Shown here: positions 35,217-63,725 of the stretch, piece after piece
Position numbering within the stretch: the stretch's first letter is position 1
Layout: each line of letters starts with the position of its first letter
Origin: Patescibacteria group bacterium
Lineage (GTDB): Bacteria > Patescibacteriota > Kazan-3B-28
Length of the DNA stretch: 64,000 nt
Reading direction: 5' to 3'
NCBI GenBank assembly: GCA_041649135.1
Contig: JBAZNQ010000002.1
Span: 41,238 to 105,237 of the forward strand
Position numbers and translations under genes: made by a program
The notes under the pieces: generated by a model
Told to the model about the DNA's origin: nothing
Database searches by the model: none
What the model saw: the letters and a program-made list of their open reading frames with translations, nothing else

Positions 35217-35277
35217 ATATGGCTATATAAAAGTAACGCAGGGAGTGTCTTTTATATGGCTATATAAAAGTAACGCG
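35204..35277. repeat. Two tandem 37-bp direct repeats, each containing the palindrome CTTTTATAT-GGCT-ATATAAAAG
   Basis: GGGAGTGTCTTTTATATGGCTATATAAAAGTAACGC(A/G) occurs twice back to back; the first unit overlaps the terminator's 3' arm. Confidence 0.8.
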
Positions 35278-41916: not shown

Positions 41917-42738
41917 ATGAAATACACTATTCGTCAGTTCAGAGCAGACTTTCCTGATGAGGATACCTGCCTAGAATATGTCTTTAAGAAGCGGTTTCCC
42001 GAAGCCGAGCAGTATTATCGGGTAAAGGGTCGGAAATGTTGGGCTAACCCTGCTGGTGAGCAGATACACCCTTTGGCTGGGACTATCTTTGCGAAGTCCA
42101 GTACCCCTCTAACCCTATGGTTCTATGCGATCTATATGTTCGCTCAAAGCAAAAATGGAGTAGCGGCTAAAGAGCTGGAGAGACAGTTAGGGGTTACTTA
42201 TAAATGTGCTTGGCGTATGGCGAGACAGATTCGCAAACTAATGTCTGATGACGGAGAGCCACTTACCGGAGAAGTTGAGGTAGATGAAACCTACATTGGT
42301 GGTAAAGCTCTCAACAATATGCGGAAGAAGAATATAACCATCAAAGACAAGGAGGTTTTGTTCGGTATGGTGGAACGAGGCGGTCGGGTAAAAGCTAAGC
42401 ACCTGATTAGCAACGGTTCTCGTCTAATCATTCCCCAGATTAAAAAGAACATCGAACCTAAGAGTACGATCTACAGCGATTCCTACAGAGCTTATGACAC
42501 CTTAACTCGGCGTGGGTATTCCCACAGTTCGGTAAATCATCAAGAACATTTTGTAGTTGAACTCACCCACACCAATACGATTGAAGGTTTTTGGTCGCAG
42601 TTAAAGCGGAGCATTAACGGGACTTATCATCATGTTTCGGCAAAACATCTTCAGCTTTACGCTGATGAGTTTGCTTTCCGCTATTCTTGGCGGAAGTCTT
42701 CTCCGGCGATGTTTGATCTGCTGTTGGCGAGGGTGTAA
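41917..42738 (+). CDS. IS1595-family (ISXO2-like) DDE transposase
   Basis: N-terminal transposase zinc-ribbon (CLEY...C), ISXO2-like core with TIEGFWSQLKRSINGTYHHVSAKHLQLYADEF. Confidence 0.9.
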   Translation: MKYTIRQFRADFPDEDTCLEYVFKKRFPEAEQYYRVKGRKCWANPAGEQIHPLAGTIFAKSSTPLTLWFYAIYMFAQSKNGVAAKELERQLGVTYKCAWRMARQIRKLMSDDGEPLTGEVEVDETYIGGKALNNMRKKNITIKDKEVLFGMVERGGRVKAKHLISNGSRLIIPQIKKNIEPKSTIYSDSYRAYDTLTRRGYSHSSVNHQEHFVVELTHTNTIEGFWSQLKRSINGTYHHVSAKHLQLYADEFAFRYSWRKSSPAMFDLLLARV

Positions 42739-45393: not shown

Positions 45394-45467
45394 GCGGGTA
45401 TAGTTTAATGGTAGAATATCTCTTTTCCAAAGAGAATATACGGGTTCGATTCCCGTTACCCGCTCCA
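45394..45467 (+). tRNA. tRNA-Gly (anticodon UCC), CCA encoded
   Basis: Manual fold: acceptor GCGGGTA/TACCCGC, D-loop AATGGTAG, anticodon stem TCTCT/AGAGA with loop TTTCCAA (U33, anticodon TCC, A37), T-arm ACGGG-TTCGATT-CCCGT, discriminator T, then CCA. Confidence 0.85.
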
Positions 45468-46967
45468 GTCTGAACACAAGGCGCGCTCCGCGAGGAGCGC
45501 GTAAGGCGGAATCCAGTCCCAGAGCACTTTCCGAGAATTCAGAATCAGGTTCGAGCCAACCTCCGCGACAAAGTCGCGTAGTTCCAAGAGATCACCACCC
45601 GCAGCCGGGAGATTGCTCTCCCTGACTGCGTTAATCAGCTCCCGAAGAGGTTCGAGCCAGTACATCACCCCCTGACGGGCGATCTTGCCGAATTGGGTCT
45701 CAAGAGCTATCTTCGCATTCACCAACTTTCGCTTGCGGGCGGCATACTCCGCCCGATCAATTTCTCCATCTACATGCAAGTCATTCAATCTGCGCAGCTT
45801 CGCTGCGATCCCGGCAATTTCAATTTCAAGCTTGAGCGCTGGCGCATTCTCATTGGTTACGGCTTCAGCTTCCCAGTCGTCTAGCTGGCGGAGCATCGGG
45901 AAAACCCACTCCTCCGATTCTGGTAAGGCGATAGTCTTAAGCCGTTCCCACATCCTTGCTAATAAATCCTCTTCGCGCATAAACGGCTGGGAACATTTTA
46001 AAGTCCCGCCTTTTTTGGTGCAGCGATAGTAGCGCCAGACATGGTGGTTGCCGTTCTGCTGCGTCCTGACGTGTGTCTCGGCGGTAATCGAAGCTCCGCA
46101 TTCCCCACAGCGTATCAGCCCTAAGAATGGAAACTCTCTCTTGTAATGCGCTTGGGCTCTTCCTCGCTGAGCAAATACACGTTGCACCTTGTCCCAAAGT
46201 GCTTTGCTTACAACCGGTTCATGGCAACCCCTGTAAAGCTCGCCTTTCCACAAAATCGCCCCGTAGTAGAACGGATCAACCAGTATGCCCGACATGCTGG
46301 CTTTAGGGATCAAGGTCTCGTAGTAGCCCTTAAGCCCGTGTCCGTACATTACTTTCGCTAAGGCAAGCATTGAGTACTGGCCGGTGGCGTACAGCTCAAA
46401 CATCCGCTTGATTAACGGAAATCTGACAGGATCAGGAATAATCTCATGTGTTTTAGGATGATTGAGGTAGCCTAGTTTCGCTTTGCCGGGGTAGATGCCC
46501 TTCGCTAACTTAGATGCTAGACCACGGTGGACTAGCTCGCTCAGGTTATCAGTGTAGCGCTTGCTTTCGGCGAAAAAGAACGCCAGCATGAACTTGTCAG
46601 TACTCGTATTTTTGAAGGTAGAAGTAGCAGTCACAATCTGGTGCAATTGACCGGAATCGAGAAGCTCAATGATCCGCGCTCCATCCATAGCATTGCGGGC
46701 GATTCGTGAAGCATCATAAGCTAGCAGCGCGTTGGCTTTGCCCTGGCTGATGGAAGCAAGAACAGCATCAAACTGTGGCCTTCCTGGTTTCCTCGCACTC
46801 ATCGATTCCTCATACTGCTCTTCAAGACGCATTTGAAGGCTGCTAGCAGCTTTCAAAGCCCATTCGCGCTGGTCCGGGATGCTTTGTACTTGTCGCTCGT
46901 CGCTTTCAGTAGATTTACGGTAGTAAGCGACATATCTCAATTTGGTGTGCTGTAGTTTATTGCTCAT
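45456..46967 (-). CDS. Large serine recombinase (integrase), C-terminus overlapping the tRNA-Gly 3' end
   Basis: Resolvase/invertase N-domain with the catalytic serine region YYRKSTESDERQVQSIPDQ, a recombinase domain and a zinc ribbon (CGECGASI...C..C). The stop codon lies inside the tRNA acceptor stem. Confidence 0.9.
   Translation of the reverse strand: MSNKLQHTKLRYVAYYRKSTESDERQVQSIPDQREWALKAASSLQMRLEEQYEESMSARKPGRPQFDAVLASISQGKANALLAYDASRIARNAMDGARIIELLDSGQLHQIVTATSTFKNTSTDKFMLAFFFAESKRYTDNLSELVHRGLASKLAKGIYPGKAKLGYLNHPKTHEIIPDPVRFPLIKRMFELYATGQYSMLALAKVMYGHGLKGYYETLIPKASMSGILVDPFYYGAILWKGELYRGCHEPVVSKALWDKVQRVFAQRGRAQAHYKREFPFLGLIRCGECGASITAETHVRTQQNGNHHVWRYYRCTKKGGTLKCSQPFMREEDLLARMWERLKTIALPESEEWVFPMLRQLDDWEAEAVTNENAPALKLEIEIAGIAAKLRRLNDLHVDGEIDRAEYAARKRKLVNAKIALETQFGKIARQGVMYWLEPLRELINAVRESNLPAAGGDLLELRDFVAEVGSNLILNSRKVLWDWIPPYALLAERALCSDWSG
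45461..45539. repeat. Left copy of a perfect 79-bp inverted repeat (pairs with 47884..47962)
   Basis: CGCTCCAGTCTGAACACAAGGCGCGCTCCGCGAGGAGCGCGTAAGGCGGAATCCAGTCCCAGAGCACTTTCCGAGAATT is the exact reverse complement of 47884..47962. Its first 7 nt are the tRNA-Gly 3' end. Confidence 0.85.
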
Positions 46968-49719: not shown

Positions 49720-49962
49720 GTGGAGCTGGCTCAGCAAGTAGGGATGAACATCCGCGTTCTACGGGTACGGCGCAGGCTGTCGCAAGAGAAGCTGGCCGAG
49801 CGGATGGGCATCGAGCGGCAGCAGGTCAGCGACATCGAGTTGGGCAAGCGCAATCTGACACTGCTGACCGTTACGCGAATCTGCCAAGCCTTAAACTGCC
49901 AGCCATCTGAGTTGTTCGCGGACACGTCGATAGAGCTAAGTCAGGGAAAGCGTAGTCGATAG
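49720..49962 (+). CDS. XRE-family helix-turn-helix transcriptional regulator
   Basis: LRVRRRLSQEKLAERMGIERQQVSDIELGKRNLTLLTVTRICQALNCQPSELF is a Cro/C1-type HTH; divergent from the GNAT operon. Confidence 0.8.
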   Translation: MELAQQVGMNIRVLRVRRRLSQEKLAERMGIERQQVSDIELGKRNLTLLTVTRICQALNCQPSELFADTSIELSQGKRSR

Positions 49963-49985: not shown

Positions 49986-51653
49986 GTGGGGGATCTTGTG
50001 TTTGAGCATTCACCTTCTGTGTGGGATGTAGTAAGTGCTATCGCCAGCAGCCTGATGCTGTGGGCTTTGGTGATTCTGCTGCTGCTGGCCGTGCGCCTTT
50101 GGTTGACCAAGTTCATCTACTACATGCAGGACTACACCACCGGCTTTCTCAAAGTACGTGGCTTGGTAGCTGCCGCACAGCGTGAAGACGCATGGAAACT
50201 CAGCGAGCATCGTCCCGTTGGCAAGTATGCCGACTGCTCACTGACGCTCGGACTAACAGAGAGCAGCGGCTACTCACAGCCATTTGTGGTTCCCGGCGAT
50301 TACCGCACTACTCATATGTATGTGGTGGGCGCTTCCGGCTCCGGCAAGTCGTCGTTGCTGAAGAACCTGATCCATCAGGACATCCGCAGCGGGATGGGAC
50401 TGTGTGTGATCGACCCGCACGGCGATCTGATCTATGACACGGTGGCGCAGCTGGGCAAGCGAGCGGAGCAAACCGTGATGCTGGACTTGGCGGATACGGA
50501 ACACATGCTCGCGTACAATCCGCTTGAGCGCAGGCAAGGTGTGCTGGTTGCCGAGCAGGTGGCGAAGCTGATACTGGCGTTTCAGCGGATTTGGTCTGAC
50601 AGCTGGGGGTCTAGGATGGAAGACATCCTGCGCCATACGCTGACGCTGCTTGTCGAGCAGGGATACACGCTGGCGGAGTTCGAGCGCGTGCTGACCGACG
50701 CGGACTTCCGCGAGATGTTGGTTGAAGCATCGATGATTGACCAAACGCGCGAGTACTTCCTTGGACGCTACAACACATGGAACAGCAAGGAACGCCAGCT
50801 CTTCAGCGAGTCCTCTCTTAACAAGGTCTCGGCGTTCATGGCCGATCCTCGCATTGGCGTGAGACTCGGCCAGACTAAGTCCGGCTTCAACCTAAAGGAC
50901 ATCATGGACACCGGTGGGATACTGCTGGCGAATCTCGCGAAAGGCAAGCTGGCGGGTAACGCAGACCTATTCGGCGCGCTGCTGATGGCTGACATTGAAA
51001 TGAGCTTCCTTTCCCGCCCGCCAAACCAGCGCAGTCCGTTCGCGCTGTATGTCGATGAGTTTCAGAACATCGCAACGGAGAGTTTCGAGACGGTGCTGGC
51101 GGAAGCGCGCAAGTTTGGCCTGTGCTTAACGATGGCGCACCAATCCCTGAAGCAGGTTGATGACACGCTGGCTTCGCTCATCCTCGGCAACGCGCAGACG
51201 CAGGTGTACTTCCGTGTTGGCAGGCAAGATGCGGAGCGGTTGGCGAAAGAGTCTGCCAACATTATCGCGCAGCTGATCGAGCAAGAGGAAGAGCCGCAAT
51301 TGATGCAGGAACGGGAGCGGAAGTTCTCCATGTCCGAGTTATGGGAAGCGGCTTTTCACCAGCTTGTCCGGCTTGAGCCGCGCCGGGCTTATGTGATGGT
51401 CAAGGGCGCGATGGAGCATCCGGAGCTGGTTCGCACGATAGATAATCCTGTGGTCAAGAGCGTGAAGTTCCCTTACAGCGCAGCCTACGCCAAGCTGGAA
51501 GTGTTTGAGGCGGCGCTGAAACAGCGGGCGAAAGACATCATGCATGCAGTGGATGAGTACGTGAAGCAGAGGCAAGCGAAACAAGGCAAGCCAATTGAAG
51601 CCAGTCCTGGCGCGGATGAGGAAGTACCGGCAGCATTGGACTTCTTGAAGTAG
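49986..51653 (+). CDS. Type IV coupling-protein-like ATPase (TraD/TraG/VirD4 family; TraM-recognition/DUF87-like)
   Basis: N-terminal TM helix, Walker A VVGASGSGKSSLL, Walker B ALYVDEFQNI and a C-terminal TraD/TraG-like region (KFGLCLTMAHQSLKQV). Confidence 0.7.
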   Translation: MGDLVFEHSPSVWDVVSAIASSLMLWALVILLLLAVRLWLTKFIYYMQDYTTGFLKVRGLVAAAQREDAWKLSEHRPVGKYADCSLTLGLTESSGYSQPFVVPGDYRTTHMYVVGASGSGKSSLLKNLIHQDIRSGMGLCVIDPHGDLIYDTVAQLGKRAEQTVMLDLADTEHMLAYNPLERRQGVLVAEQVAKLILAFQRIWSDSWGSRMEDILRHTLTLLVEQGYTLAEFERVLTDADFREMLVEASMIDQTREYFLGRYNTWNSKERQLFSESSLNKVSAFMADPRIGVRLGQTKSGFNLKDIMDTGGILLANLAKGKLAGNADLFGALLMADIEMSFLSRPPNQRSPFALYVDEFQNIATESFETVLAEARKFGLCLTMAHQSLKQVDDTLASLILGNAQTQVYFRVGRQDAERLAKESANIIAQLIEQEEEPQLMQERERKFSMSELWEAAFHQLVRLEPRRAYVMVKGAMEHPELVRTIDNPVVKSVKFPYSAAYAKLEVFEAALKQRAKDIMHAVDEYVKQRQAKQGKPIEASPGADEEVPAALDFLK

Positions 51654-51686: not shown

Positions 51687-52004
51687 ATGAACCGCAAGCA
51701 GTTCAACCAACACATCAATAGCACATTGAAGGCTCTCCGCGAAGTAGAAAGCCGTGATTGGTATAGCCTACTGCTTGCCTCTGCCAACCCGATTGATGAA
51801 GTTGGCGAAGCGGTGAAGCTGATTAAGGTTGCTGCGGGATACAAGCAGTTCGTGCGGGAATGCCCAGATACCGGTAGTGAGACAAGACGCGAAGCCTACC
51901 TGCTTCTGCGCGCCGCTTACGATGGCGGAGTTTTCCCGCCGCGCCAGCATGTGAGCAAGGCGCAGTTTAAACGCCTGCTCGACATGCACCTATCGCGGCT
52001 CTAG
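51687..52004 (+). CDS. Hypothetical protein
   Basis: 105 aa, high GC, co-directional with the island genes. Confidence 0.4.
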   Translation: MNRKQFNQHINSTLKALREVESRDWYSLLLASANPIDEVGEAVKLIKVAAGYKQFVRECPDTGSETRREAYLLLRAAYDGGVFPPRQHVSKAQFKRLLDMHLSRL

Positions 52005-52320
52005 ATGAGTTCGCGCTCTGCCAGAACTCAACCTAATTCACCGTGAAAGGCGAAAGGTGCAAGAGCGCCCAAAGACGAGTCCTACTAGCGTAAGTAGGAC
52101 AGGGTTTGAACATGACGCCCCCACGTCCATCTTGTGTTTCGGCCGCTAGACCACCTGAGACGGCTACACGCGGTAGCTTCTAGACGGGTGGGCATATTCC
52201 CTTGCTCCCCGCGCCCGGCAGAGCGTAGCTCAAGCATACGCTCTGTTGACAGTTTCGCGAAAACGCTAGATCCAAAACAGACGGCTTAAGTTTCTATCCA
52301 CATGATAGACTAGCAGCGCT

Positions 52321-53247
52321 GTGAATGTATACAAAGCAAAGGCTGGGCGCTTCCTGTTGTATCTCGATATTCTAGGGTTCAAGCAACTAATCCGGCACCG
52401 CAGCCCTGAAGAGGTCTACGCCACAGTAGATCAGATGTTGAGAGAGACCGCTGAGCGAGAACGCGGTATACCGGATTTCACAACGTTATATTTCTCAGAC
52501 ACGATTGTCTTTTTTCAAAAGTCGGTCGGATACGGATCTTGGGCCTTTGGAGACATTTATTCATTAACTGCAATGATCTGGTCAGCACTGGCAGCCAGAA
52601 AAATACCGACTCGCGGAGCAATCGCCTTTGGAGACTTCCATGCCGAGCCAGATTCCCGTGGGCAGCACACGGTATTCTTCGGTGAGGCGTTGATAGAAGC
52701 TTACGAAACTGAAAAACTGGAAAACTGGATCGGAGTAACTCTATGTCCAAGCGCTGTGGAAATCGTTAATTACGTAGAGCCTAATCGACTTACGCAAATG
52801 CTAAATGAGCCAGGCGCTTTCGATTACGTGGATCAGATTGAGAAAGAGCACGCAGCCTATACTCCGGCTGTCTTTGTCGAGTATTTTAAGAAGGCACAGC
52901 CAACAGTACTGCATAGAACTGCTTGCCGTCGAGTGCTCCTCAATCCACTGTACTTTCTGCATCAAACTTGGTTCGCAGATGTCTACGATGAGGGAGTAGT
53001 GAGTTACCCCCTTCATCATGATAGTGTGCATTTCGCTCATGATATTCTCTCCCTGAAGTTCATCCTACAAACCGCAGAGGAACCAGATGGAGCTGATCCA
53101 GAGCGGAACAAAGTCCTCGCCAAGTATAGAAATACAGCAGCGCTCCTCCGCCAGATGTTTCCGTCAGAGTGTATCGAGTGGGCCTTGAAGCTCTATGAAA
53201 CTTTCCCGGACCAGGCAGACGAAGGGTGGGGCGACTGGAAGAAATGA
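52321..53247 (+). CDS. Class III nucleotidyl cyclase-like (AC/GC/GGDEF palm) domain protein with unknown C-terminal domain
   Basis: LYLDILGF matches the FADIVGFT metal-binding motif; FSDTIVFF lies 43 residues later, matching the second metal Asp (GDxxxxF); RGAIAFGDF matches the RIGIHxG arginine. GTG start. The assignment rests on motifs only. Confidence 0.45.
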   Translation: MNVYKAKAGRFLLYLDILGFKQLIRHRSPEEVYATVDQMLRETAERERGIPDFTTLYFSDTIVFFQKSVGYGSWAFGDIYSLTAMIWSALAARKIPTRGAIAFGDFHAEPDSRGQHTVFFGEALIEAYETEKLENWIGVTLCPSAVEIVNYVEPNRLTQMLNEPGAFDYVDQIEKEHAAYTPAVFVEYFKKAQPTVLHRTACRRVLLNPLYFLHQTWFADVYDEGVVSYPLHHDSVHFAHDILSLKFILQTAEEPDGADPERNKVLAKYRNTAALLRQMFPSECIEWALKLYETFPDQADEGWGDWKK

Positions 53248-53416
53248 TTAGCCTACTAATGACTGTGGACAATTTCACGGAAACGGTAGAACTACAATAG
53301 AAAGCACCGGTTTCTATCCACAACGAGCATACTAGGTAGGCAGAATCCTCTTCGCTCATTAACAACGTTAACTTCAACTCCCCGATGCGCGCAATACCGC
53401 CGGAGGCGGCACTGCG

Positions 53417-53761
53417 TTGCGCATCAAGGACATCAAGAGTCTTGTTTGGCTCTATCGCTGGTACAACGGACGTTCCCAGCGTCTTCAAGAAACCCATCAA
53501 GTTCATCTTGCCGCTGTTTCGCAACTAGTCGTTGATGAGCTTGGCGGCACACCGCAGGGCAGCACGGAAGTCTGCCTGTGCGGATTTTCTCTTATCGTAA
53601 AGGCCAGCCCTGACGGGCTGGCGATTGAGTCCATTACCCCGCCTACATTTATCAACGGCGTTCAGCTGATGTTGTTTGACGCCGATTTGGATGATGACTA
53701 CCTGGCGGGCCAGTACTGTGAATCCACTGAAGAGGTGCAACGTGAAGTTGCTTACCGATGA
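53417..53761 (+). CDS. Hypothetical protein
   Basis: 114 aa ORF in the island; no motif recognised. Confidence 0.35.
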   Translation: MRIKDIKSLVWLYRWYNGRSQRLQETHQVHLAAVSQLVVDELGGTPQGSTEVCLCGFSLIVKASPDGLAIESITPPTFINGVQLMLFDADLDDDYLAGQYCESTEEVQREVAYR

Positions 53762-54588: not shown

Positions 54589-54998
54589 TGCGCCCTCTGC
54601 CATTCCCGCAGACGGGTTAGATTTCCCAAGGGATTTCTGCAAGCTAACCGGCACGTCGTTCCCGCGACGGGCTGGCTTGGCTTGGGAACGACTAATAAAT
54701 AACAATAGCGTGATTGGGTTACTTGTGGTATGCTTTACTCGTGGATAACTTGTTGATAATCCACACAATTGCGTCCCGACGAGATTCTGCTGCGCCTGAC
54801 GACGCTCGTATGTGTTATACTTTGTACCCAGCTCAGCGGATGAATGAGCTGGGGGAGAATGGCGGAAAAGCTGAATACATGGGGCGTAGCTCATGCGAGT
54901 CTGGTGGAATCTCGCGGATGCTACAAAGGCACCTTGGCAAAGGCAAAAAGCACCCCCGCTCGTTAAAACAAGCGGGGGCCATTGCACGGTAGGTTACC

Positions 54999-55100
54999 CT
55001 ACCGTTTCCGTTTATTCAGTCCTTGCCATACCAGAATGATCTGGCAGGCTAGACCGATAACGGCAACGATGAGTCTTATCCACTCAAAGTGGCCGTTCAT
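54999..55100 (-). CDS. Candidate 31-aa hydrophobic peptide (type I toxin-like); unannotated short ORF
   Basis: SD GGAGGT 7 nt upstream of the ATG; MNGHFEWIRLIVAVIGLACQIILVWQGLNKRKR has a TM helix and a basic tail. A hairpin ACGGTAGG-ttac-CCTACCGT lies immediately downstream. Confidence 0.3.
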   Translation of the reverse strand: MNGHFEWIRLIVAVIGLACQIILVWQGLNKRKR

Positions 55101-55375
55101 GACGGTACCTCCTTTTGTGGCTCTACCACGAGGCCCACAGGGGGTACCGTCCCCATTTATTTGTTTTAAAAAACCCGCTCGTGCGGGTTGTTCTGTTTAT
55201 CTACTCGGGGGAAACTGCAAGTGTTTGAGCTTCACTAGCTTAAGCCACCGTTCAGCTTCACGTATACTCATACAGCCTCCACCGTTGAAAGTATACCACA
55301 CTTTTGGTCGAGGGCAAGATCGGGGGAACTGGTTCATAGCTAAAACCCGCGCTGAATAGCATCTCGCTTCCCGGG

Positions 55376-56377
55376 ATGGATCAGCATGGCTTATGTACAA
55401 TGGTACTGAGACCAAACCATATGAGTCCACGTAAACCAAAGACAGACCAGAAACGGCTACCGCGAACAAAGCGAGCCAAGCACCCGCCTGCTTTTCGGAT
55501 TACCAAGCGCGATGTAGAGCTGGTGCGCGCTATCCTGAATTACCGCTTCCTCTACACTAAGCACGTGTTCTGGCTGTTGCCGAAAGCCAGCCAGCAGAAC
55601 CTGACCGTGCGGTTGCGGCACCTATACCATCATGGCTACTTGAATCGCGTTTTGCTTCCTGACTCCAGTACCAATGAGCAGCTGGTCTACGCGCCGACCG
55701 AAAAGGGCGCGGTGATGGTTGCGGATGCGGACGGTATCAGCCGAGATGAAGTTGAATGGCACCGCTACATGAACATCGTCTCGCCCTCGCATATCCGCCA
55801 CCTGCTCTCAATCAACGACGTGCTGGTGTCTTATGAGATTGCGCTAGGGCAAGCTAAGGCTCAAGGCAAGATAGCGGATTACAAGGTAGTGCGCGGGGAG
55901 CCGCGCAAACACAAGCTACCGGTGCTGCTTAGAGACAAGGACGGCAAACGGCGTGAGGTTGCCAATGTGCCGGACGCTTATCTTGCGGTAGTGTTTGACA
56001 GCCACAATTACGGCGTGTTCTTTGTGGAAGTGGACAGGGCGACGATGGGGTCGTCGCGCTGGGCAGAGAAGATCGAGGTCTATCGCGAGTACCCGCGCAC
56101 CCAGCACTTCAAGGACAAGTTTAAGGCGCAATGGTGTATAGTGTTAACCGTCGCGCCGAGCGAAAAGCGGGTCATGTCGCTAGCGGAGAAAACCGCCGGC
56201 ATGGGGGGTCAGCGGGGATTCTGGTATGCGCTCGCTGACCAGCTAACACCGGATACCGCTTGCGGACCCGTTTGGATCAGAGCGTCGGACTTATTTGGTG
56301 TTCGTAATGAAAGGGTGGTCAAGCTGAGCGAAATCAGCAGGGCTATCAGATCGGGATTGCCCGATGCGCTAAGGTAG
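55376..56377 (+). CDS. Replication-relaxation family protein (plasmid/ICE replication initiator-like, winged helix)
   Basis: ITKRDVELVRAILNYRFLYTKHVFWLL...QNLTVRLRHLYHHGYLNRV matches the N-terminal wHTH of the replication-relaxation family. The true start may be an internal Met (MSPRKPK). Confidence 0.6.
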   Translation: MDQHGLCTMVLRPNHMSPRKPKTDQKRLPRTKRAKHPPAFRITKRDVELVRAILNYRFLYTKHVFWLLPKASQQNLTVRLRHLYHHGYLNRVLLPDSSTNEQLVYAPTEKGAVMVADADGISRDEVEWHRYMNIVSPSHIRHLLSINDVLVSYEIALGQAKAQGKIADYKVVRGEPRKHKLPVLLRDKDGKRREVANVPDAYLAVVFDSHNYGVFFVEVDRATMGSSRWAEKIEVYREYPRTQHFKDKFKAQWCIVLTVAPSEKRVMSLAEKTAGMGGQRGFWYALADQLTPDTACGPVWIRASDLFGVRNERVVKLSEISRAIRSGLPDALR

Positions 56378-56744: not shown

Positions 56745-59015
56745 ATGATTACTCAGATATCCATAAGCAAGACGGCCATTTATGGCGATACGCCAGTTGT
56801 GTTAGACGAATTGCTTCAATTCAACTATGTTTTCGGTGCTAATGGTTCAGGCAAAACGACAGTAAGTCGTTTTCTCAATGACACTTTAAATCCAGAGTAT
56901 TCAAATTGCTCAGTTACGTATCAAGGAATTTCTCGACCTAATATTCTCGTCTACAACAAGGATTTTGTTGACGACAAGCTAAATGTATCAACAGCGATAC
57001 CAGGCATTTTTACTTTCGCTGATGAAAATGAACCAGCAAGGGCGAAAATCAAAGAACTAGCTGATACTTGCGCTGGCTATACTAAGACCCTTGAAGGACT
57101 CAACATCACCTTGAATGGAGGAGATGGCAAACCGGGTGAATTAGGCAAATTGCAAGTACTAGACGCTGACTTTCGCGGAAGATGTTGGCGACAAAAGCTC
57201 AAATACGACGCTGACTTCAAGAGCGCCTTCTCCGGATTTCGCCGGAACTCTGCCGATTTTATGAAGAAGGTTCTCCTTGAATACGCTGAGAATAAAGCCA
57301 CATTACTAAACATAGATACTCTGAAGAGCAAAGCAGGCTCCATCTTCACCGATACCCAGACAAGTGAGCCATCTTTTGAAATTATCGACTTCAGCAGAAT
57401 CCTCACCTATGAATCGAGCCTCCTGTTAAAGAAAGTGGTGGTTGGCAAACAGGATGTTGATATCGCCAGCATGATTAAGAAGTTGGGAAACAGCGATTGG
57501 GTGAAGACAGGGCGCCCATACTACGACATCAACGACATGTACTGTCCATTCTGTCAGCAACTTACTACAGAGCAGTTCGCCAAGGAACTGAATGAGTATT
57601 TCGATTTATCATTTGAATCTGATATGAAAGATTTACAGCAACTATACCAAGACTATGATGCTGAATCACAAGCAATCGAAGACAAGCTTAACACTATAGC
57701 AAGCCGTTCCTCGGTTTTCGTTGATATGAATCAACTAATAGCCGAAAGAGACACTCTCTTCGCTTTACTAAAAGCGAATACAGCCATTATCGAACAGAAA
57801 GTGAAAGAGCCAAGTCGGATATTTAGTCTTCAACCGCTAAATGAAGTAGTTAGTAGAATTAGCAATTTGTTGAATACAGCCAATGACAAGATTGACGAAC
57901 ACAACAAGCTAGTAGCGAACATTGCCGCTGAGCGTAAACTATTAACTGCCCAAGTATGGAGATTCATTATTGATTCAGAGTTGAAGGACGAGATTGAGAA
58001 GTACTTAGATGAGAAGAACAAAATTGAGAAAGCAATAACCGGCATCAACGCTAGAATTACCAAAACAAGTACGGAGCTGGAGAATGCCCAGAATGAAAGC
58101 AGTGCGCTTAGTAGGCAGATGACTAGCATTGAACCTACGGTACGACGCATTAATGATATTCTGCGTTCGTTCGGTTTCCTGAGTTTTCACTTAAAGGTTG
58201 CCGAAGATAGAACTTCTTACAAGATTGTACGCAGCAACGGAAGTGATGCTCGGCAGACCCTGAGCGAGGGTGAGCGCGCTTTTATTTCATTTCTCTATTT
58301 TTTCAGTATGATTTCCGGAAGCGTAGATGCGGACGGTTTAGCCGGAGACAGAATTGTCGTTTTTGATGATCCAGTATCTAGTTTAGATAGCGACGTTTTG
58401 TTTATTGTTAGCTCACTCATCAAGCAGACTATTAAACACTCGCGCGAGAAGATTAGCAGAGTCAGACAGATTTTCGTTTTTACACATAATGTATTTTTCC
58501 ATCGTGAGGTTACATTTGATATTAATAGAAGAGGACCAAAAAGGAATGATGAAACATTCTGGGTATTGCGGAAGATTAATAATAGGCCTCTTGCTAAATC
58601 GCATGAGGAGAATCCTATCACTACTTCCTATGAGCTGCTTTGGAGTCAGTTAAGAGACGATATGTCTAGCTCCTCAACGTTAGCAAATGTAATGCGACGG
58701 ATTCTGGAGCATTACTTCAAACTGCTTGGAGGAATGAAAGACGAGGACATATTTCAAAGGTTTGAAGGTGACGAGCAGCTAATATGCCGTTCGTTATTTT
58801 CATGGATGAACTATGGCTCGCATTGCTCGGATGACGATCTATATGTTGCAGTGGACGAGTCTATGGTGGAGAAGTACAAATCAGTATTCAAGAAGATATT
58901 CGTTGACACTGGACATGAGAAACATTTCGAGATGATGATGAAGGGGTTTGAATTTCCCGAAAAGGAAGCGCCATTAGAAGCTCCAGAGCCAGTCGAGGAA
59001 GCTGTTGTGGGTTAG
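56745..59015 (+). CDS. RloC-like AAA_13 ATPase (restriction-linked; putative wobble-nucleotide-excising anticodon nuclease)
   Basis: N-terminal Walker A FGANGSGKTT, long coiled coil containing a CxxC zinc-hook-like motif (YCPFCQQ), Walker B/D-loop VVFDDPVSSLDSD and a ~200-aa C-terminal domain. Located directly upstream of a Type III R-M pair. Confidence 0.6.
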   Translation: MITQISISKTAIYGDTPVVLDELLQFNYVFGANGSGKTTVSRFLNDTLNPEYSNCSVTYQGISRPNILVYNKDFVDDKLNVSTAIPGIFTFADENEPARAKIKELADTCAGYTKTLEGLNITLNGGDGKPGELGKLQVLDADFRGRCWRQKLKYDADFKSAFSGFRRNSADFMKKVLLEYAENKATLLNIDTLKSKAGSIFTDTQTSEPSFEIIDFSRILTYESSLLLKKVVVGKQDVDIASMIKKLGNSDWVKTGRPYYDINDMYCPFCQQLTTEQFAKELNEYFDLSFESDMKDLQQLYQDYDAESQAIEDKLNTIASRSSVFVDMNQLIAERDTLFALLKANTAIIEQKVKEPSRIFSLQPLNEVVSRISNLLNTANDKIDEHNKLVANIAAERKLLTAQVWRFIIDSELKDEIEKYLDEKNKIEKAITGINARITKTSTELENAQNESSALSRQMTSIEPTVRRINDILRSFGFLSFHLKVAEDRTSYKIVRSNGSDARQTLSEGERAFISFLYFFSMISGSVDADGLAGDRIVVFDDPVSSLDSDVLFIVSSLIKQTIKHSREKISRVRQIFVFTHNVFFHREVTFDINRRGPKRNDETFWVLRKINNRPLAKSHEENPITTSYELLWSQLRDDMSSSSTLANVMRRILEHYFKLLGGMKDEDIFQRFEGDEQLICRSLFSWMNYGSHCSDDDLYVAVDESMVEKYKSVFKKIFVDTGHEKHFEMMMKGFEFPEKEAPLEAPEPVEEAVVG

Positions 59016-59083: not shown

Positions 59084-60958
59084 ATGAAAGAGCCAGACAA
59101 GAAGCATGGAGTCGAACACGTCACGCGGGAAGCAGGGCTGGACATGAATGAGCGCGTGGAGTTTCTGCGCGAGCTGTTCCCGGAAGCCGTTGCTGAGGGC
59201 AGGGTGGACTGGGACAAGCTGCGTGCGGCGCTGGGCGAAGCGGTGGAAGGGAGCGCGGAGCGGTACAGTTTCTCATGGGCTGGCAAGCGCGACGCGATAA
59301 GGTTGGTACAGATGCCGAGCCGCGCAACGTTGAACCCCGCGCAGGATGAGTCCGTGGATTGGGACACGACCAGGAACGCCTTCATCGAGGGCGACAACCT
59401 TGAGGTGCTGAAGCTTCTGCTAAAGGCGTACTACGGGCGAGTGAAGATGATCTACATCGACCCGCCTTATAACACCGGCAATGACTTCGTTTATCCTGAC
59501 AATTACGCCGATCCGCTAGACACCTACCTCAAGCTGTCTGGTCAGAAAGACGCGGATGGCAACTTGCTGACTACTAACGCCAACACAAGCGGGCGCTATC
59601 ACTCGGTTTGGCTGTCAATGATGTACCCGCGCCTCTTCCTCGCCAAGCAAATGCTTCGAGAGGACGGAGTGATATTCGTAAGCATTGATGATAACGAAGT
59701 TCATAATTTGCGTCTGATAATGAACGAGATATTTGGCGAGGAAAACTTTATTGCACAATTCGTTTGGGAGAAGATGTATACAACCAAGAATGATGCTGCG
59801 CAGGTGTCCATATGTCACGAGTACGTTATTTGCTACGCGCACAATAGCAATGAATCGATGATTCAGTTACTCCCACGAACTGACGAAATGGATGCTAGAT
59901 ACACTAATCCGGACAATGATCCTCGCGGACAGTGGAAAGCGATTCCCTTGTACGCTGACGGAGAAAGGAAGAATGGCAGATTTCCAATAGCAAGTTCCAC
60001 AGGTAAAGTGACTGAGTTGGGGCCAAACAAGCATTGGCGATACCGATCTGAGGATGTTCAAGCACTTATTGCAGATAGCCGTATCTACTTCGGCAAAGAT
60101 GGGAATGGACAGCCTGTCTTGAAACGTTTCTTATCGGAAGTTCAGAGCGGGTTAAAAACAAAGACCTTATGGTCACACTCTGAGGTTGGGAGCAACGATT
60201 CAGCTAAACGGCAGCTCAGGCAGCTTTTTCCTGAGGCTACTGACGCTTTCAGTTTTCCTAAGCCCAGCACGCTAGTACAACACATGCTACGGCTTATCAC
60301 TACTCAAGCAGAAGAACTTGTGATGGATTTTTTTGCGGGAACCTGCACCACGGCTGAAGCCGTGCTTGAACTCAACCACACTGACTCGGGTAAACGAAGA
60401 TTCATTATGGTCCAGCTTCCCGAACTGACGGGACTCGCGAAGTGGGCAACTATCGCTGAGATCGGGAAGGAGCGTATCCGTCGCGTTATCGAAAAACTTA
60501 AAGCAGACCAGCAAGACAAGTTGAAGCTGGCAGAGCGCAACGAACCTGAAGACCTGGGCTTCCGCGTGTACAAGCTGGCAGAATCCAATTATAAGCTGTG
60601 GACAGGCGTCGCGGACAATGACCCCGACAAGTACGCGGCAGAACTGGAGCTGTTCGCCGATCCGCTATACGATGGCTGGCTACCTGAAAGCGTGATATAC
60701 GAAGTCGCAGTGAAAGAGGGCTACGGGCTGGGCTTGAGCATCGCAAAGGTAGACGGCGTCAAGAAGAACGAGGTTTACCGTGTGAGCGATGCGGGCAAGG
60801 GGCAGAGCTTCATCATCTGCCTGGACAGCAAACTCGACCCGCAAACGCCGCGCGAGCTGGAACTAAAGAAAGATGATCTATTTGTTTGCCGCGACATCGC
60901 GCTGACGGATGAACTGGCGGCTAACCTTGCTCTGCAATGCAGGCTGAAGACGGTGTAG
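59084..60958 (+). CDS. mod: Type III restriction-modification system methyltransferase (Mod), N6-adenine
   Basis: KMIYIDPPYNTGNDFVYPDNY (DPPY motif IV) and an SAM-binding FxGxG region; size and order match Type III Mod. Confidence 0.85.
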   Translation: MKEPDKKHGVEHVTREAGLDMNERVEFLRELFPEAVAEGRVDWDKLRAALGEAVEGSAERYSFSWAGKRDAIRLVQMPSRATLNPAQDESVDWDTTRNAFIEGDNLEVLKLLLKAYYGRVKMIYIDPPYNTGNDFVYPDNYADPLDTYLKLSGQKDADGNLLTTNANTSGRYHSVWLSMMYPRLFLAKQMLREDGVIFVSIDDNEVHNLRLIMNEIFGEENFIAQFVWEKMYTTKNDAAQVSICHEYVICYAHNSNESMIQLLPRTDEMDARYTNPDNDPRGQWKAIPLYADGERKNGRFPIASSTGKVTELGPNKHWRYRSEDVQALIADSRIYFGKDGNGQPVLKRFLSEVQSGLKTKTLWSHSEVGSNDSAKRQLRQLFPEATDAFSFPKPSTLVQHMLRLITTQAEELVMDFFAGTCTTAEAVLELNHTDSGKRRFIMVQLPELTGLAKWATIAEIGKERIRRVIEKLKADQQDKLKLAERNEPEDLGFRVYKLAESNYKLWTGVADNDPDKYAAELELFADPLYDGWLPESVIYEVAVKEGYGLGLSIAKVDGVKKNEVYRVSDAGKGQSFIICLDSKLDPQTPRELELKKDDLFVCRDIALTDELAANLALQCRLKTV

Positions 60959-60968
60959 GGCTAGCGCT

Positions 60969-63725
60969 ATGGAATTTAAGTTTGACGCTAATCAGGAGTA
61001 CCAGCTTACGGCGATAGATGCCGTGGTCAGCCTGTTCAACGGCCAGCCGCATATGGAAGCCGTGATCACGTTTGGCACTGAGGTGATACTCCCAGAGCAC
61101 GCATATCAGACCGATCTGCCGCTGCCGGCTGACAGACCTAAGCAGATGGCTTTGTCAGCGGGACTTGCCGCAGTGCCGAACCAGATTGAGCTAACACCAG
61201 AGGAAATCCTGCGCAACCTGCGCGATTTGCAAGAAGCGAATGGCATAGAACCGGACGCGGAGCTGAAGTACATCGCGGGCGAAATCGAGACGGCTGAAGG
61301 CAAGGCGGAAGCGCGCTTCCCCAATTTCTCCGTGGAGATGGAGACCGGCACGGGCAAGACCTACGTGTACATTCGCACCGTGCTTGAGCTGTACCAGCGT
61401 TATGGGATGCGTAAGTTTATCGTGGTCGTGCCGTCTATCGCTGTACGTGAGGGCGTGCTGAAGTCGCTGAAGGTCACGTCGCGGCACTTGAAAGAGCTGT
61501 ATAGCAATCCGACCTATCGCTTCTATGTCTACGACTCAGCCAGCCTGAGCCAGGTCCGTGGTTTCGCCACTTCGAGCGGCGTCGAGATCATGGTGATGAC
61601 GCTGGACTCGTTTAACAAGGCGGTAAAAGAAGACGGCGCAGGTGGCAACGTGATTTTCAAGAGCACGGACAAGCTGTCCGGCGAAAAGCCGATCCACCTG
61701 ATTCAGAACACGCGCCCGATTCTCATTCTCGATGAACCGCAGAACATGGAGAGCGAGAAAAGCGTGGAAGCGCTCAAGGTGCTGAACCCGCTATGCGCCT
61801 TGCGCTACAGCGCGACGCACCGCAATCCGTACAATGTCGTCTACCGGCTGTCGCCGTTCGATGCCTACCGGCAGAACATCGTGAAGCGAATCGAAGTGGC
61901 GTCGGTCGTTAAAACCGATGACGCCAACCAAGCGTTCATGCGGCTGGAAAGCGTGAAGACGCTGAAGAACACCATCACGGCAAAGCTGACGGCGCACAAG
62001 CTGATGAAAGACGGCACTGTCAAGGAAACGAGCTTCACGCTGAAACCTGATAGCGACCTGGCTGAACTAACGAACTTGCCGCAGTATGCTGGCTTGACGG
62101 TTGAAGAGATTGACGTGGTGGGGCAACGTGTCCTATTCACCAATGGCGTCGAATTAACTGCTGGCGAAGCACAGGGCGCGGACAAGGACGCAATCTTCGA
62201 GGCGCAGATTCGCTACACCGTGGAAGAGCATATGCGTAAGGCGAAGCGCTTCCGCGATGCGGGAATCAAGGTGCTGTCGCTCTTCTTCATTGACCATGTC
62301 GATAACTATGTGCTTGAAGACGGGCTTATCAAGAAGCTTTTCGATAAGGCGTACTTAGCGCTTCGCGATAAGCATCCTGAATGGAAGCAGTGGGAGCCAG
62401 ATGAAGTGCGCGCTGCGTACTTTGCCCAGCGCAAGGTGAAGGGCACAACGGAAGCCGTGGACACCACGGGCAAGAGCGCGGCGGACGCCTACGCTTACGA
62501 CCTGATTATGAAAGACAAGGAACGCCTGCTGTCGTTCGAGTCGCCGGTGGCGTTCATCTTCTCTCACTCGGCGCTACGTGAAGGTTGGGACAATCCGAAC
62601 GTATTTCAGATTTGCACGCTGAACCAGACGGCATCGGAAATCAAGAAGCGCCAAGAAGTCGGGCGCGGTATCCGGCTGGCGGTGAACCAGACCGGCGAAC
62701 GTGTCCACGAGGAAGCGGTGAACGTGCTGACCGTCGTGGCGAATGAGAGCTATGAGCAATATGTCGCTTCACTACAAAGCGAGATTGAAGCGGAGTACGG
62801 AGCTTCCGGCGTGCCGCCTAAGCCGCCGCGCGCCGAACGTGTAACCGTCCGGCTGAACAAGAAGTACCTGCTCAGCGATGACTTCAAGAACCTTTGGGAG
62901 AAGATTAAGCACAAGACTCGTTACTCGGTGAAGATTGATACGGACAAGCTGGTCGGTGATGTGCTGGCGGAGTTGGACAAAGCGGTAATCAGCAAGCCAC
63001 GCGTGGAAATTCGCAAGGCAGATGTAACCGTAGACAAAGAGGAAGCGTTCAAGGCACTGCTAAAGACCGGCGCAAAGACGCTGATTGACCTGTCCGGCAA
63101 GTACCCCTTGCCTAACCTAGTCGAACTGCTGCTGCACCAGCTTGAGCACACCAGCCCGCCGGTGCGACTGACGCGGGCAACGCTGGCGCGGATCGTGCGC
63201 GAGACCAAGCGCAAAGCTGACGCGGCGCTGAATCCGCAAGAGTTCGTGCGGGTCGCGACCGACATCCTCAAAGACAAACTGGCTGAAAGCCTGATTGACG
63301 GGATTGAGTACGAGAAGATGAATGCTTGGTACGAGATGAGCCAGTTCGAAGATTTCGAAAGCTGGCGAGAACACCTTGTACCGGCGAAACACTCGGTCTA
63401 TGACGCGACGCCATTCGACTCCGAGATTGAGCAGAAATTCGCTGAAGGGCTGGAAGCGCGCGAAGATGTGCGCCTATACGTCAAACTGCCAAGCTGGTTC
63501 ACCGTGCCAACGCCTGTGGGAGAGTATAATCCTGATTGGGCCATTGTGATGAACAGCGAAGACGAGGGCAAGCCGGTGTTGTATTTGGTGCGGGAAACCA
63601 AAGGAACCACCAATCCGTGCGACCTGCGCCCCGACGAGAAGCGTAAAATCATCTGTGGTAAAAAGCATTTCAAGGATGCTCTAGCTATCGATTACAAGGT
63701 TGTTGCGAAAGCATCCGAGGTTTAG
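60969..63725 (+). CDS. res: Type III restriction enzyme Res subunit (SF2 helicase + endonuclease)
   Basis: N-terminus MEFKFDANQEYQLTAIDAVVSLFNGQ is typical of Res. Walker A METGTGKTYV, DEPQN box and a C-terminal PD-(D/E)xK-like region. Confidence 0.9.
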   Translation: MEFKFDANQEYQLTAIDAVVSLFNGQPHMEAVITFGTEVILPEHAYQTDLPLPADRPKQMALSAGLAAVPNQIELTPEEILRNLRDLQEANGIEPDAELKYIAGEIETAEGKAEARFPNFSVEMETGTGKTYVYIRTVLELYQRYGMRKFIVVVPSIAVREGVLKSLKVTSRHLKELYSNPTYRFYVYDSASLSQVRGFATSSGVEIMVMTLDSFNKAVKEDGAGGNVIFKSTDKLSGEKPIHLIQNTRPILILDEPQNMESEKSVEALKVLNPLCALRYSATHRNPYNVVYRLSPFDAYRQNIVKRIEVASVVKTDDANQAFMRLESVKTLKNTITAKLTAHKLMKDGTVKETSFTLKPDSDLAELTNLPQYAGLTVEEIDVVGQRVLFTNGVELTAGEAQGADKDAIFEAQIRYTVEEHMRKAKRFRDAGIKVLSLFFIDHVDNYVLEDGLIKKLFDKAYLALRDKHPEWKQWEPDEVRAAYFAQRKVKGTTEAVDTTGKSAADAYAYDLIMKDKERLLSFESPVAFIFSHSALREGWDNPNVFQICTLNQTASEIKKRQEVGRGIRLAVNQTGERVHEEAVNVLTVVANESYEQYVASLQSEIEAEYGASGVPPKPPRAERVTVRLNKKYLLSDDFKNLWEKIKHKTRYSVKIDTDKLVGDVLAELDKAVISKPRVEIRKADVTVDKEEAFKALLKTGAKTLIDLSGKYPLPNLVELLLHQLEHTSPPVRLTRATLARIVRETKRKADAALNPQEFVRVATDILKDKLAESLIDGIEYEKMNAWYEMSQFEDFESWREHLVPAKHSVYDATPFDSEIEQKFAEGLEAREDVRLYVKLPSWFTVPTPVGEYNPDWAIVMNSEDEGKPVLYLVRETKGTTNPCDLRPDEKRKIICGKKHFKDALAIDYKVVAKASEV

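Follow-up and report, generated by a model that had tools for sequence, protein, structure and literature searches.

Cyclase-fold enzymes in bacterial immunity are, to our knowledge, known so far only as generators of signals for paired effectors, as in Pycsar, type III CRISPR and Panoptes systems. The 308-aa protein analysed here is a diverged member of a very large superfamily that has no name; it travels as a single gene and has no dedicated receptor or effector. Its gene is a single-gene cargo of a tRNA-Gly-integrated mobilisable element, in which it lies directly 3' of a conserved non-coding element, E, of which a second copy is found on its far side (Table 1).

Table 1. Features of the locus within the window, i.e. 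the whole 64-kb stretch of DNA that was analysed.
Feature	Position	Strand	Basis
Large serine recombinase abutting tRNA-Gly (45394-45467), left end of the element	45456..46967	-	GC content shifts here
Type IV coupling protein (T4CP; TrwB/TraD-like)	49986..51653	+	Pfam; relatives 75-81% identical
105-aa hypothetical, in a cargo slot of its own immediately behind the T4CP gene	51687..52004	+	Absent from L096 and L097
U, conserved non-coding backbone segment upstream of E	52004..52242	+	Core 52110-52242 84-88% identical to relatives
E1, upstream copy of element E: CTGTTGACA-N38-GTTTCTATCCACA plus about 10 nt; 8 nt separate it from the GTG	52243..52312	+	Repeat scans, nhmmer, alignment to relatives
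13-mer, right arm of E1	52290..52302	+	Exact search
Cyclase-like ORF, 308 aa, GTG start	52321..53247	+	ORF call and translation; homologues align from its first residue
N-terminal class III cyclase-homology (palm) domain, residues 1-145; D16, S59-D60, R98, G121, G138	52321..52755	+	
C-terminal alpha-helical domain, residues 146-308, of unassigned fold; conserved N208-P209, K268-Y269-x-x-T272	52756..53247	+	
E2, downstream copy of E: CTGTGGACA-N38-GTTTCTATCCACA plus leader; begins 15 nt past the stop codon	53263..53334	+	Repeat scans, nhmmer, alignment to relatives
13-mer, right arm of E2	53310..53322	+	Exact search
114-aa backbone gene, TTG start, GGAGG upstream; heads the 114aa-DUF2958-169aa-relaxase block	53417..53761	+	Present in relatives without the cyclase-like gene
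Replic_Relax family protein, putative relaxase	55376..56377	+	Pfam
PDC-S06/AAA_13 (RloC/PrrC-like), defence cargo at the right side	56745-59015	+	Pfam, PADLOC
Type III Mod, defence cargo	59084-60958	+	Pfam, PADLOC
Type III Res, defence cargo	60969-63725	+	Pfam, PADLOC

The ORF had been picked out in a first-pass annotation; it is where that annotation placed it, and it contains the three motifs LYLDILGF (residues 13-20), FSDTIVFF (58-65) and RGAIAFGDF (98-106). The MAG protein WC553_03170 is 100% identical to its product. No clear Shine-Dalgarno sequence precedes the GTG codon. Fold comparison reveals a class III cyclase palm in the N-terminal half of the protein, in line with the two-Asp and Arg cyclase pattern noticed earlier. 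Over 182 representatives of the family, D16 is conserved in 96%, D60 in 98%, R98 in 93% and the K268/Y269 pair of the C-terminal domain in 91%, and the Ser that precedes D60 is near-invariant as well among some 180 diverged representatives. In the C-terminal domain, an insertion of approximately 35 residues (residues ~160-195) is common only to the window protein and P0002. D16 and D60 are 44 residues apart, a spacing equal to that of D102 and D146 in PycC (PMC11224242). They are paired by hhalign with D396 and D440 of AC5 C1, a comparator whose sequence was confirmed over its first 50 residues. Neither a lack of resemblance to cyclase palms nor a loss of the aspartates in homologues, the two outcomes named beforehand as speaking against the assignment, was observed.

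As for the rest of the canonical active site, no conserved Asn or Arg was found between G121 and G138 across the family, and the residues conserved in that stretch are A123, L124, E126, A127 and Y128. In canonical cyclases the transition-state pair (N1025/R1029 of AC2 C2) is on the helix that follows the G-x-x-V-N motif; hhalign yielded no alignment with AC2 C2. The position four residues before D60, where the base-specifying Lys sits, is occupied by Leu or Ile, and the base-specifying Lys/Asp (or Glu/Cys) pair is absent from the family, both as judged from the motif register and not from a structural superposition. Because the Asn/Arg pair is missing and Leu takes the place of the base-specifying Lys, cyclase chemistry of the canonical kind cannot be taken for granted, and the domain may do no more than act as a nucleotide-binding switch.

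Profile searches place the family at a distance from described enzymes. PF00211 matches only 2 of 35 homologues, with a best E of 4e-4, and the window protein falls below the Pfam gathering score. The family profile reaches cyclases in the PDB at a marginal E of 0.05, and a profile of residues 50-146 alone retrieved no cyclases from the PDB, just chance matches to Hfq and AcpS. When bona fide cyclases were sought among the fetched loci with an AC5 fragment, only the family members themselves were matched. GGDEF or Cas10-mCpol membership is not supported: the GG[DE]EF/GGDD signature is absent from the 308-aa protein, which has YFSDT in that position, and the structural match to the Panoptes mCpol/Cas10 palm and GGDEF domains is weaker than that to class III cyclases.

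At E<=1e-3 the family comprises 9,849 clusters, with members in Planctomycetota, Pseudomonadota, Verrucomicrobiota, Bacteroidota and Bacillota and in one archaeon, and we found no description of it in the literature. The 308-aa protein has zero matches in Pfam, PADLOC and NCBIfam or, by phmmer, in the PDB. Pfam models match none of 10 sampled family members either, and the sole match is to phrog_23933, whose function is not assigned. In the search for a partner gene, the 973 ORFs of 80 loci were clustered with blastp, 113 neighbours were scanned with Pfam and PADLOC and 10 upstream genes with Pfam, and 13 upstream genes were aligned. This gene-neighbourhood comparison, which the first-pass annotation had proposed, revealed no conserved neighbour in the 80 genome loci: neighbours are heterogeneous, with the most widespread family present in at most 4 of the 80. 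No cNMP-binding domain fused to a TIR or TM domain was found among the 113 scanned neighbours and 10 upstream genes. The earlier idea of a Pycsar/CBASS-type system was not borne out, and the gene does not belong to those systems: it has no PADLOC or Pfam match and no linked receptor.

Although exceptions exist, association with defence genes recurs across the raw locus contexts, being frequent but not universal. At L007 and L022 the family gene lies within a type I R-M operon. Such homologues are placed between the hsdS and hsdR genes, and overlaps of start and stop codons are seen there. Elsewhere it adjoins Hachiman with AbiJ, DISARM-like genes, GmrSD, HEPN and methylase genes, or AbiE and PemK genes; toxin-antitoxin-type genes (PIN, HipA, PemK, AbiE) adjoin it in several loci. 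Small transmembrane proteins are encoded directly upstream at L023, L034, L026 and L003, in genes that overlap or nearly abut the family gene. The neighbourhoods at L003 and several other genome loci are of the housekeeping type. Family members are also carried by plasmids, including a DUF262-fused form in Bacillus. A phage database of 50,697 records gave a single match, whose phage origin we rejected because the record corresponds to a Tn7-like transposon region.

The host of the window gene has the hallmarks of an integrative mobilisable element, namely an integrase by a tRNA gene, a coupling protein, a relaxase-family gene and a synteny kept in relatives. Its backbone runs in the order serine recombinase, MBL, HTH (49720..49962), T4CP, (slot 1), U, E, (slot 2), 114-aa gene, DUF2958, 169-aa gene, Replic_Relax and defence cargo; its right end was not found within the 64-kb window. 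The description of the surroundings as a mobile island with R-M and RloC-like neighbours holds, the PDC-S06 gene being 3.5 kb downstream of the cyclase-like gene and followed by the type III R-M system. The GC content of the cyclase-like gene is 48.7%, against 55-57% for the backbone. Rfam returned nothing in 51900-53500, U included, and only tRNA in the rest of the island, and a search of plasmid DNA with the element backbone gave nothing useful. Conservation of the U core equals or exceeds that of the genes around it, and the segment 52005-52320 folded as ssDNA has a z of -3.46.

The small genes on either side had been put forward as possible effectors. The 114-aa gene belongs to the backbone and is shared with relatives that do not carry the cyclase-like gene, and the 105-aa gene is cargo of an unrelated kind; thus neither is an effector. 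Homologues of these two genes beside the family gene were found in none of 76 of the 80 other loci, those in which the gene was placed.

An exact search found the 13-mer GTTTCTATCCACA at two sites and at no other in the window. These sites are those reported earlier, each with an ACTAG behind it (52309-52313 and 53331-53335). Taken alone, the 13-mer is weak evidence, because with up to two mismatches it has 3 matches against 1.44 expected, and by our own estimate a 64-kb window should contain one exact 13-mer pair no more than about 1 kb apart. The two 13-mers are nevertheless the 3' ends of an ungapped 60-nt direct repeat (52243-52302 and 53263-53322) with 45 of 60 positions identical and a spacing of 1020 nt. 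A seed-and-extend scan found one other pair with at least 42/60 identity (a tandem coding repeat at 35 kb) and none in 5 shuffles. With nhmmer, the homologous stretch measures about 100 nt at each site (52232-52329 and 53252-53348), and no third copy was detected. The direct repeat is thus beyond chance and larger than first described.

Three related elements, L095, L096 and L097, carry E in a single copy. In L096 and L097, T4CP, U and one E are followed directly by the 114-aa gene, and in L095 the single E has another insert, about 600 nt long, behind it. The cyclase-like gene is a single-gene cargo in slot 2, directly 3' of E. By these alignments, the second E on the far side of the gene is a copy of the backbone element, a leftover of the insertion and not a part of a signalling system. 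The suggestion of paired regulatory or recombination sites thus stands in part: the repeats are not fortuitous, and they are copies of a conserved backbone element that mark a gene insertion, but they are not a site pair belonging to a cyclase system. The position just 3' of E is an insertion hot spot, as the different insert of L095 is found there.

The arms of E form an 8-bp inverted repeat, TGTGGACA and TGTCCACA, at a fixed spacing of 38 nt, and the right arm is conserved as GTTTCTRTCCACA in L095, L096 and L097. E1 and E2 share 45 of 60 positions, and either shares 32-41 of 60 with the E of the relatives; E2 passes directly into the conserved leader ahead of the 114-aa gene. Scanning for sigma-70 promoters gave none on the plus strand at E, and by hand inspection no conserved -10 box was seen at a proper spacing. 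The folding of E as RNA or ssDNA is unremarkable (z -0.6 to -1.7), and a consensus fold of 5 E sequences has an unfavourable covariation term, so that a structure is unsupported. A metagenome pattern scan also returned L098, which has E-like arms in an unrelated context; we regard it as a chance match.

We see about an even chance that the locus holds a one-gene, probably defensive, cyclase-fold enzyme whose insertion duplicated an element involved in regulation or transfer. It would be a stand-alone enzyme of two domains, a palm and a family-specific C-terminal helical domain. Going by residue conservation, the palm most likely binds an NTP with a divalent metal through D16, D60 and R98, and K268/Y269 are the best candidates for the part of the Asn/Arg pair, which the second subunit supplies in canonical cyclases. 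Such a protein might serve as a one-gene defence or abortive-infection module, the C-terminal domain sensing infection and the palm then performing nucleotidyl transfer or cyclisation. The outcome would stem from the reaction itself, by consumption of NTP or production of a toxic or inhibitory nucleotide, and not from a linked effector. As for E, most likely it is bound by a protein and has a role in regulation or transfer; it lies ahead of the putative operon that runs from the 114-aa gene to the relaxase gene, and its duplication would place the cargo gene and that operon each behind a copy.

Another reading is that the palm binds nucleotides but is inactive, and that the protein is a regulator, a sensor or a maintenance factor, for instance of a toxin-like or addiction module, which makes no nucleotide. 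The absence of the residues that complete the canonical active site and the toxin-antitoxin-type neighbours in several loci are in keeping with it. Degenerate class III cyclase domains, however, usually lose the metal-binding Asp residues, the Ser and the Arg, and here the Asp pair, the Ser before D60 and R98 are near-invariant in about 180 representatives, as would be expected of an active site under selection, and we consider an inactive palm unlikely. The gene might instead be half a system, a second-messenger cyclase of the Pycsar type that acts through a general host protein or through a receptor or effector whose gene is at another site in the genome. PycC enzymes share the fold and the two metal-binding Asp residues, and the small transmembrane proteins upstream of four family genes might be seen in that light. 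Yet no family, whether cNMP-binding, TIR or other, is common to the neighbours at the 80 loci, the catalytic Asn/Arg pair is lacking and the PADLOC PycC models give no match; moreover, a lone mobile gene in need of a partner encoded elsewhere would seldom function in a new host, and this family spans several bacterial phyla and an archaeon. A Pycsar-type half-system is in our opinion quite unlikely. Very unlikely, we think, is a role in anti-defence or establishment, with expression early after transfer to blunt host immunity, e.g. nucleotide signalling. Anti-defence genes are known from the leading regions of plasmids (bioRxiv 10.1101/2023.02.15.528439), and the gene does have the coupling-protein gene on one side and the DUF2958/relaxase operon on the other, right behind a possibly transfer-related non-coding element. 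Nonetheless, homologues are found within type I R-M operons of chromosomes and amid Hachiman and DISARM-like genes, places typical of defence and not of anti-defence genes, and the phage records contain just the one match, to a Tn7-like element.

As for the arrangement itself, the copies of E might be recombination sites, and the 1020-bp unit of one E and the ORF an integron-like cassette captured or excised by site-specific recombination. Direct repeats do bracket a single ORF exactly, E has terminal inverted repeats, and L095 carries another insert at the equal place. However, E is present once in relatives devoid of cargo, which makes it a feature of the backbone and not of a cassette; L095 has cargo but no second E, and the insertion junctions differ between the window and L095. 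The sole recombinase is the serine integrase at the end of the element: no integron-type tyrosine recombinase (IntI) was found, nor were attC cores of the RYYYAAC/GTTRRRY type at the arms of E, GTTTCTA being a misfit to GTTRRRY. The 25% divergence between E1 and E2 in addition suggests a long-fixed arrangement. We regard a cassette as distinctly improbable and favour insertion of the gene with duplication of E.

It is tempting to go further and to speculate that the whole superfamily of about 10,000 clusters represents a new one-gene immune system. Its palm would have given up the dimeric site, the helical domain would complete it in cis via K268/Y269, and the reaction itself would stop the invader, the DUF262-fused form of Bacillus being a second architecture. 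In this broad form we consider the proposal rather unlikely. If a widespread cyclase-fold protein does defend alone, the logic would be new, either that of an enzyme-only system or that of cis-completion of an active site, and thousands of 'hypothetical proteins' in defence islands would gain a name and a test. The locus is also a clean natural example of cargo capture, in which elements of this tRNA-integrated mobilisable family acquire single genes at one set position, behind a non-coding element that is conserved, and it should help to read the cargo slots of such elements.

Compared with class III cyclases (PF00211), the family has a G-x-A-L-I-E-A-Y helix in place of G-x-x-V-N-x-A-x-R, S-D instead of G-D and Leu instead of the base-specifying Lys; it carries an extra helical domain of 160 residues and is without regulatory or membrane domains. 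In Pycsar, PycC works with a cNMP-activated TIR or TM effector, whereas no effector is linked to the family in 80 loci; no PADLOC PycC match is obtained at E<=1, and the residues of the head-to-tail dimer are not conserved. Unlike Panoptes mCpol/Cas10 palm and GGDEF proteins, the protein has no GGDEF/GGDD motif, and no gene for a partner 2TM effector is present here. With genes embedded in R-M loci, such as PrrC/RloC anticodon nucleases, Hypoth_Ymh and the PADLOC 'PDC' candidates, the family shares the habit of a lone accessory gene nested between hsdS and hsdR or beside defence systems, on mobile elements, but its fold and presumed chemistry are unrelated, and none of the 5,027 PADLOC models match it. 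As to the insertion, the closest likeness is with moron-type cargo. While E is only a candidate promoter or operator, a relaxosome or oriT-related site being equally possible, in both cases one ORF has come to lie between a conserved regulatory region and its operon, with the region duplicated ahead of both.

The cyclase-like reading frame called in the first-pass annotation is present as described, with 308 residues and all three of the quoted protein motifs, and has a GTG start. Its product is identical to a hypothetical protein on a 218-kb MAG contig ('Patescibacteria group bacterium'), and an indexed search returned 47 other homologues, all unnamed, mostly 255-285 aa long and 26-57% identical. 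An extra insertion of ~35 residues is common to the window protein and one family homologue, P0002. No model of Pfam, PADLOC or NCBIfam matched the 308-aa protein; PF00211 was touched by 2 of 35 family members (E 4e-4). As for the family profile, 15 of its 19 weak hits among PDB sequences were class III adenylyl/guanylyl cyclases (best E 0.05). The AlphaFold model, for which the family alignment served as input, has high confidence scores (pLDDT 87.8, pTM 0.87), and the order of strands and helices in residues 10-141 is that of a cyclase-homology domain. The top 50 Foldseek hits of this model in the PDB were all class III cyclase catalytic domains, with ~155 aligned residues, and included the Pycsar cUMP synthase 7r65. 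We regard the cyclase fold as practically certain.

Alignment of the family profile with AC5 C1 by hhalign covered residues 5-61 (probability 60%, E 8e-5) and paired D16 with D396 and D60 with D440, the two metal-binding aspartates of AC5 C1; of the AC5 comparator sequence, the first 50 residues were confirmed by the PDB search. The 44-residue spacing of D16 and D60 equals that of D102/D146 and D62/D106 in PycC (PMC11224242). Across the wider family, sampled by 182 representatives, the metal-binding aspartates proposed at first pass are retained rather than lost (D16 in 96%, D60 in 98%), as are S59 (95%), R98 (93%), G121 (99%) and G138 (97%). The C-terminal domain keeps P209 (85%), K268 and Y269 (91%) and T272 (81%). 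Between G121 and G138, these representatives conserve neither Asn nor Arg at any position. On the corresponding helix, canonical class III cyclases carry the transition-state Asn and Arg. Similarly, the residue four positions before D60 is Leu, where the canonical base-specifying residue is Lys. Because in canonical dimers the Asn/Arg and base-specifying residues come from the partner subunit, the established structure of class III cyclases suggests that the family has kept just the 'C1-like' half of its active site. The protein is somewhat more probably than not an active metal-dependent nucleotidyl transferase.

The gene resides in a mobile element. A tRNA-Gly(TCC) and the 3' end of a large serine recombinase gene share 12 nt, and GC content shifts at this junction. 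It is the probable integration site and marks the probable left boundary of the element; no right boundary was found within the window. An IS1595-family (ISXO2-like) transposase gene lies ~3 kb ahead of the integrated element. The gene order is serine recombinase, MBL, (GNAT, 167 aa), HTH, T4CP (coupling protein), 105 aa, a non-coding segment U, the repeat copy E1, the cyclase-like gene, the repeat copy E2, 114 aa, DUF2958, 169 aa, Replic_Relax, 113 aa, PDC-S06, and type III Mod and Res. The GC content of the cyclase-like gene is 48.7%, versus 55-57% for the backbone.

Coordinates of the features discussed, in the window unless another record is named
Feature	Position	Remark
~95-nt stretches	6161-6254; 25896-25987	91-93% identical, 19.7 kb apart
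36-nt motif ending TTCACTTTTAACTnTTCACT	22568-22603; 26893-26928; 32391-32426; 36883-36918	4.3-5.5 kb apart
Lys/Arg-rich tandem coding repeat	34997-35141	just upstream of the 37-nt duplication
Tandem duplication of 37-nt unit (GGGAGTGTCTTTTATATGGCTATATAAAAGTAACGC)	35204-35277	perfect but one
IS1595-family transposase gene	41917-42738
tRNA-Gly(TCC)	45394-45467
Large serine recombinase gene	45456-46967
Segment U	52004-52242	core 52110-52242
60-nt repeat, E1	52243-52302	13-mer at 52290
Cyclase-like gene	52321..53247	+ strand
60-nt repeat, E2	53263-53322	13-mer at 53310
Variable spot	54690-55350	~660 nt, GC 49.9%
Hypoth_Ymh gene, L002	7172-7984	17-22 nt gap to family gene in L002 and L006
Hypoth_Ymh gene, L006	6176-6979
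DUF262-palm fusion, L013	5419-6735	438 aa
Insert of L095	9797-10397	~600 nt

The 13-mer GTTTCTATCCACA occurs exactly twice, each time followed by ACTAG, as had been reported. By our own estimate, about one such pair ~1 kb apart is expected by chance per 64-kb window, and 13-mers with up to two mismatches showed no excess over shuffled sequence in the window. Both 13-mers are in fact the ends of an ungapped 60-nt direct repeat, the copies of which are 1020 nt apart and 45/60 identical. In the repeat scan, shuffled windows gave no pair of at least 42/60, and the sole other real pair belonged to tandemly repeated coding sequence at 35 kb. With nhmmer the homology reaches ~100 nt and no third copy was detected.

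Comparison with elements whose T4CPs are 75-81% identical and which have the same backbone shows where this repeat comes from. The compared span ends at a backbone gene of 110 to 127 aa, the 114-aa gene of the window. Between T4CP and this gene, L096 and L097 have a single E within ~440 nt of non-coding DNA, and the P0197 element has a 453-nt gap with no called gene. In the P0195 element, T4CP is immediately followed by a gene for 250 aa, and a gap of 404 nt comes next. In L095, T4CP is followed by other genes, a single E and ~600 nt of unrelated DNA, after which the conserved leader begins; this insert, which takes the place that the cyclase-like ORF has in the window, starts with a GC-rich hairpin reading as a minus-strand terminator and has no clear gene. 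In the window, a first cargo slot after T4CP holds the 105-aa gene and a second, 3' of E, holds the cyclase-like ORF and the second E. Relative to L096, the latter insertion is almost a bare ORF, with 8 nt ahead of the GTG and 15 nt past the stop. At 45/60, the two copies in the window match each other better than either matches the E of related elements (32-41/60), and therefore a duplication in this lineage, followed by divergence, is very strongly favoured. That the copies are site-specific, integron-like cassette sites is improbable: they flank the gene, but E is a backbone feature of cargo-less elements, L095 carries cargo without a second E, and an integron integrase is absent. The small neighbours put forward earlier as effectors are rejected, the 114-aa gene being backbone and neither it nor the 105-aa gene having a homologue next to the family gene in the 76 (of 80) other loci where that gene could be placed. 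A third variable spot of the backbone is the stretch between the 169-aa and Replic_Relax genes, which has no counterpart in L095, L096 or L097, no convincing ORF and no Rfam family.

In E, two conserved arms (CTGTGGACA and GGTTTCTRTCCACA) flank a variable interior and are always 38 nt apart; the arms hold an 8-bp inverted repeat (TGTGGACA and TGTCCACA), and the right arm is the 13-mer. E is located ~90 nt ahead of the 114-aa gene with its leader and TTG start. No convincing sigma-70 promoter, Rfam family, significant fold or covariation was found in E. Since its arms are conserved, its spacing fixed and its interior free, E fits a protein-binding site. Candidate roles are an operator bound by the HTH protein of the element and a relaxosome/oriT-related site. 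Segment U, between T4CP and E, is 84-88% identical in its core to three related elements, for genes at 78-83%. Folded as ssDNA together with E1 it gives a z of -3.46, and it has no Rfam match. U may serve the element as an oriT or as another cis-acting site.

Other repeats were observed in the window. A 36-nt motif present four times in its host part may be a repeated regulatory motif. Two stretches of ~95 nt each contain a CCCGTT...AACGGG hairpin, and a 37-nt tandem duplication follows a Lys/Arg-rich tandem coding repeat.

An exhaustive profile search put the family at 9,849 representative clusters with E<=1e-3, of which 3,391 reach E<=1e-10; lengths are mostly 220-280 aa. Pfam gave no domain for any of ten members sampled. 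The palm domain is matched by phrog_23933 (function unknown), and none of the papers found in the library searched describes the family. We inspected the contexts of six members in public assemblies. Their neighbours are SNF2, methylases, GmrSD and HEPN (L001); Hachiman HamA/helicase, AbiJ and Hypoth_Ymh (L002); a DISARM-like helicase/MZB/PLD set and Hypoth_Ymh (L006); hsdS and hsdR on either side in a type I R-M operon, with GmrSD (L007); AbiE and PemK (L010); and a housekeeping neighbourhood (L003). Among 80 genome loci from many phyla, one gene is likewise nested between hsdS and hsdR with 4-nt overlaps, and further neighbours include PIN, HipA, Lit and PD-Lambda-3-like proteins as well as ordinary metabolic genes. 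Clustering of the 973 neighbouring ORFs of these 80 loci revealed no family common to more than four loci, and therefore the gene travels alone. Hypoth_Ymh (PF09509) lies directly upstream of the family member on two unrelated contigs, and the +/-3 neighbours of the 22 close genome loci include one further PF09509 gene; a loose association, absent from most loci, is possible. A Methylobacter plasmid carries a member with insertion sequences on both sides. On Bacillus wiedmannii plasmid p536, WP_215559167.1, annotated as DUF262 only, fuses a GmrS-type DUF262 ahead of the palm domain (FLDILGF ... ISDS ... PLRGAIAKG ... VGKALVEAY), which thus sits where GmrSD enzymes have their nuclease. The sole 'phage' record with a homologue (MT835554.1, 'UNVERIFIED: Bacteriophage sp.') encodes TniB-/TniQ-like proteins upstream of it and probably represents the cargo region of a Tn7-like transposon rather than a phage.

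The most probable reading is that the gene is a one-gene defence or abortive-infection module, a solitary cyclase-fold enzyme inserted as cargo with duplication of E; we give it about an even chance. Genomic context by itself makes a defence role plausible, at slightly less than even. A non-catalytic nucleotide-binding switch or addiction-type protein would accommodate the missing Asn and Arg, sits less easily with the conserved aspartates, and seems unlikely. Less likely still is that the protein makes a Pycsar-like signal for a receptor encoded at an unlinked site, a proposal that the 7r65 match favours and the varied neighbourhoods do not. An anti-defence gene of the mobile element would agree with the cargo position, less so with the members inside R-M operons, and is the least probable.

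The family is a well-defined, testable and very widespread unknown. Compared with class III cyclases and Pycsar, it lacks the Asn/Arg pair, the specificity residues, profile scores above threshold and a linked effector, and it shares the fold and metal site; the cyclase-like protein would work like these systems without being a member of them.
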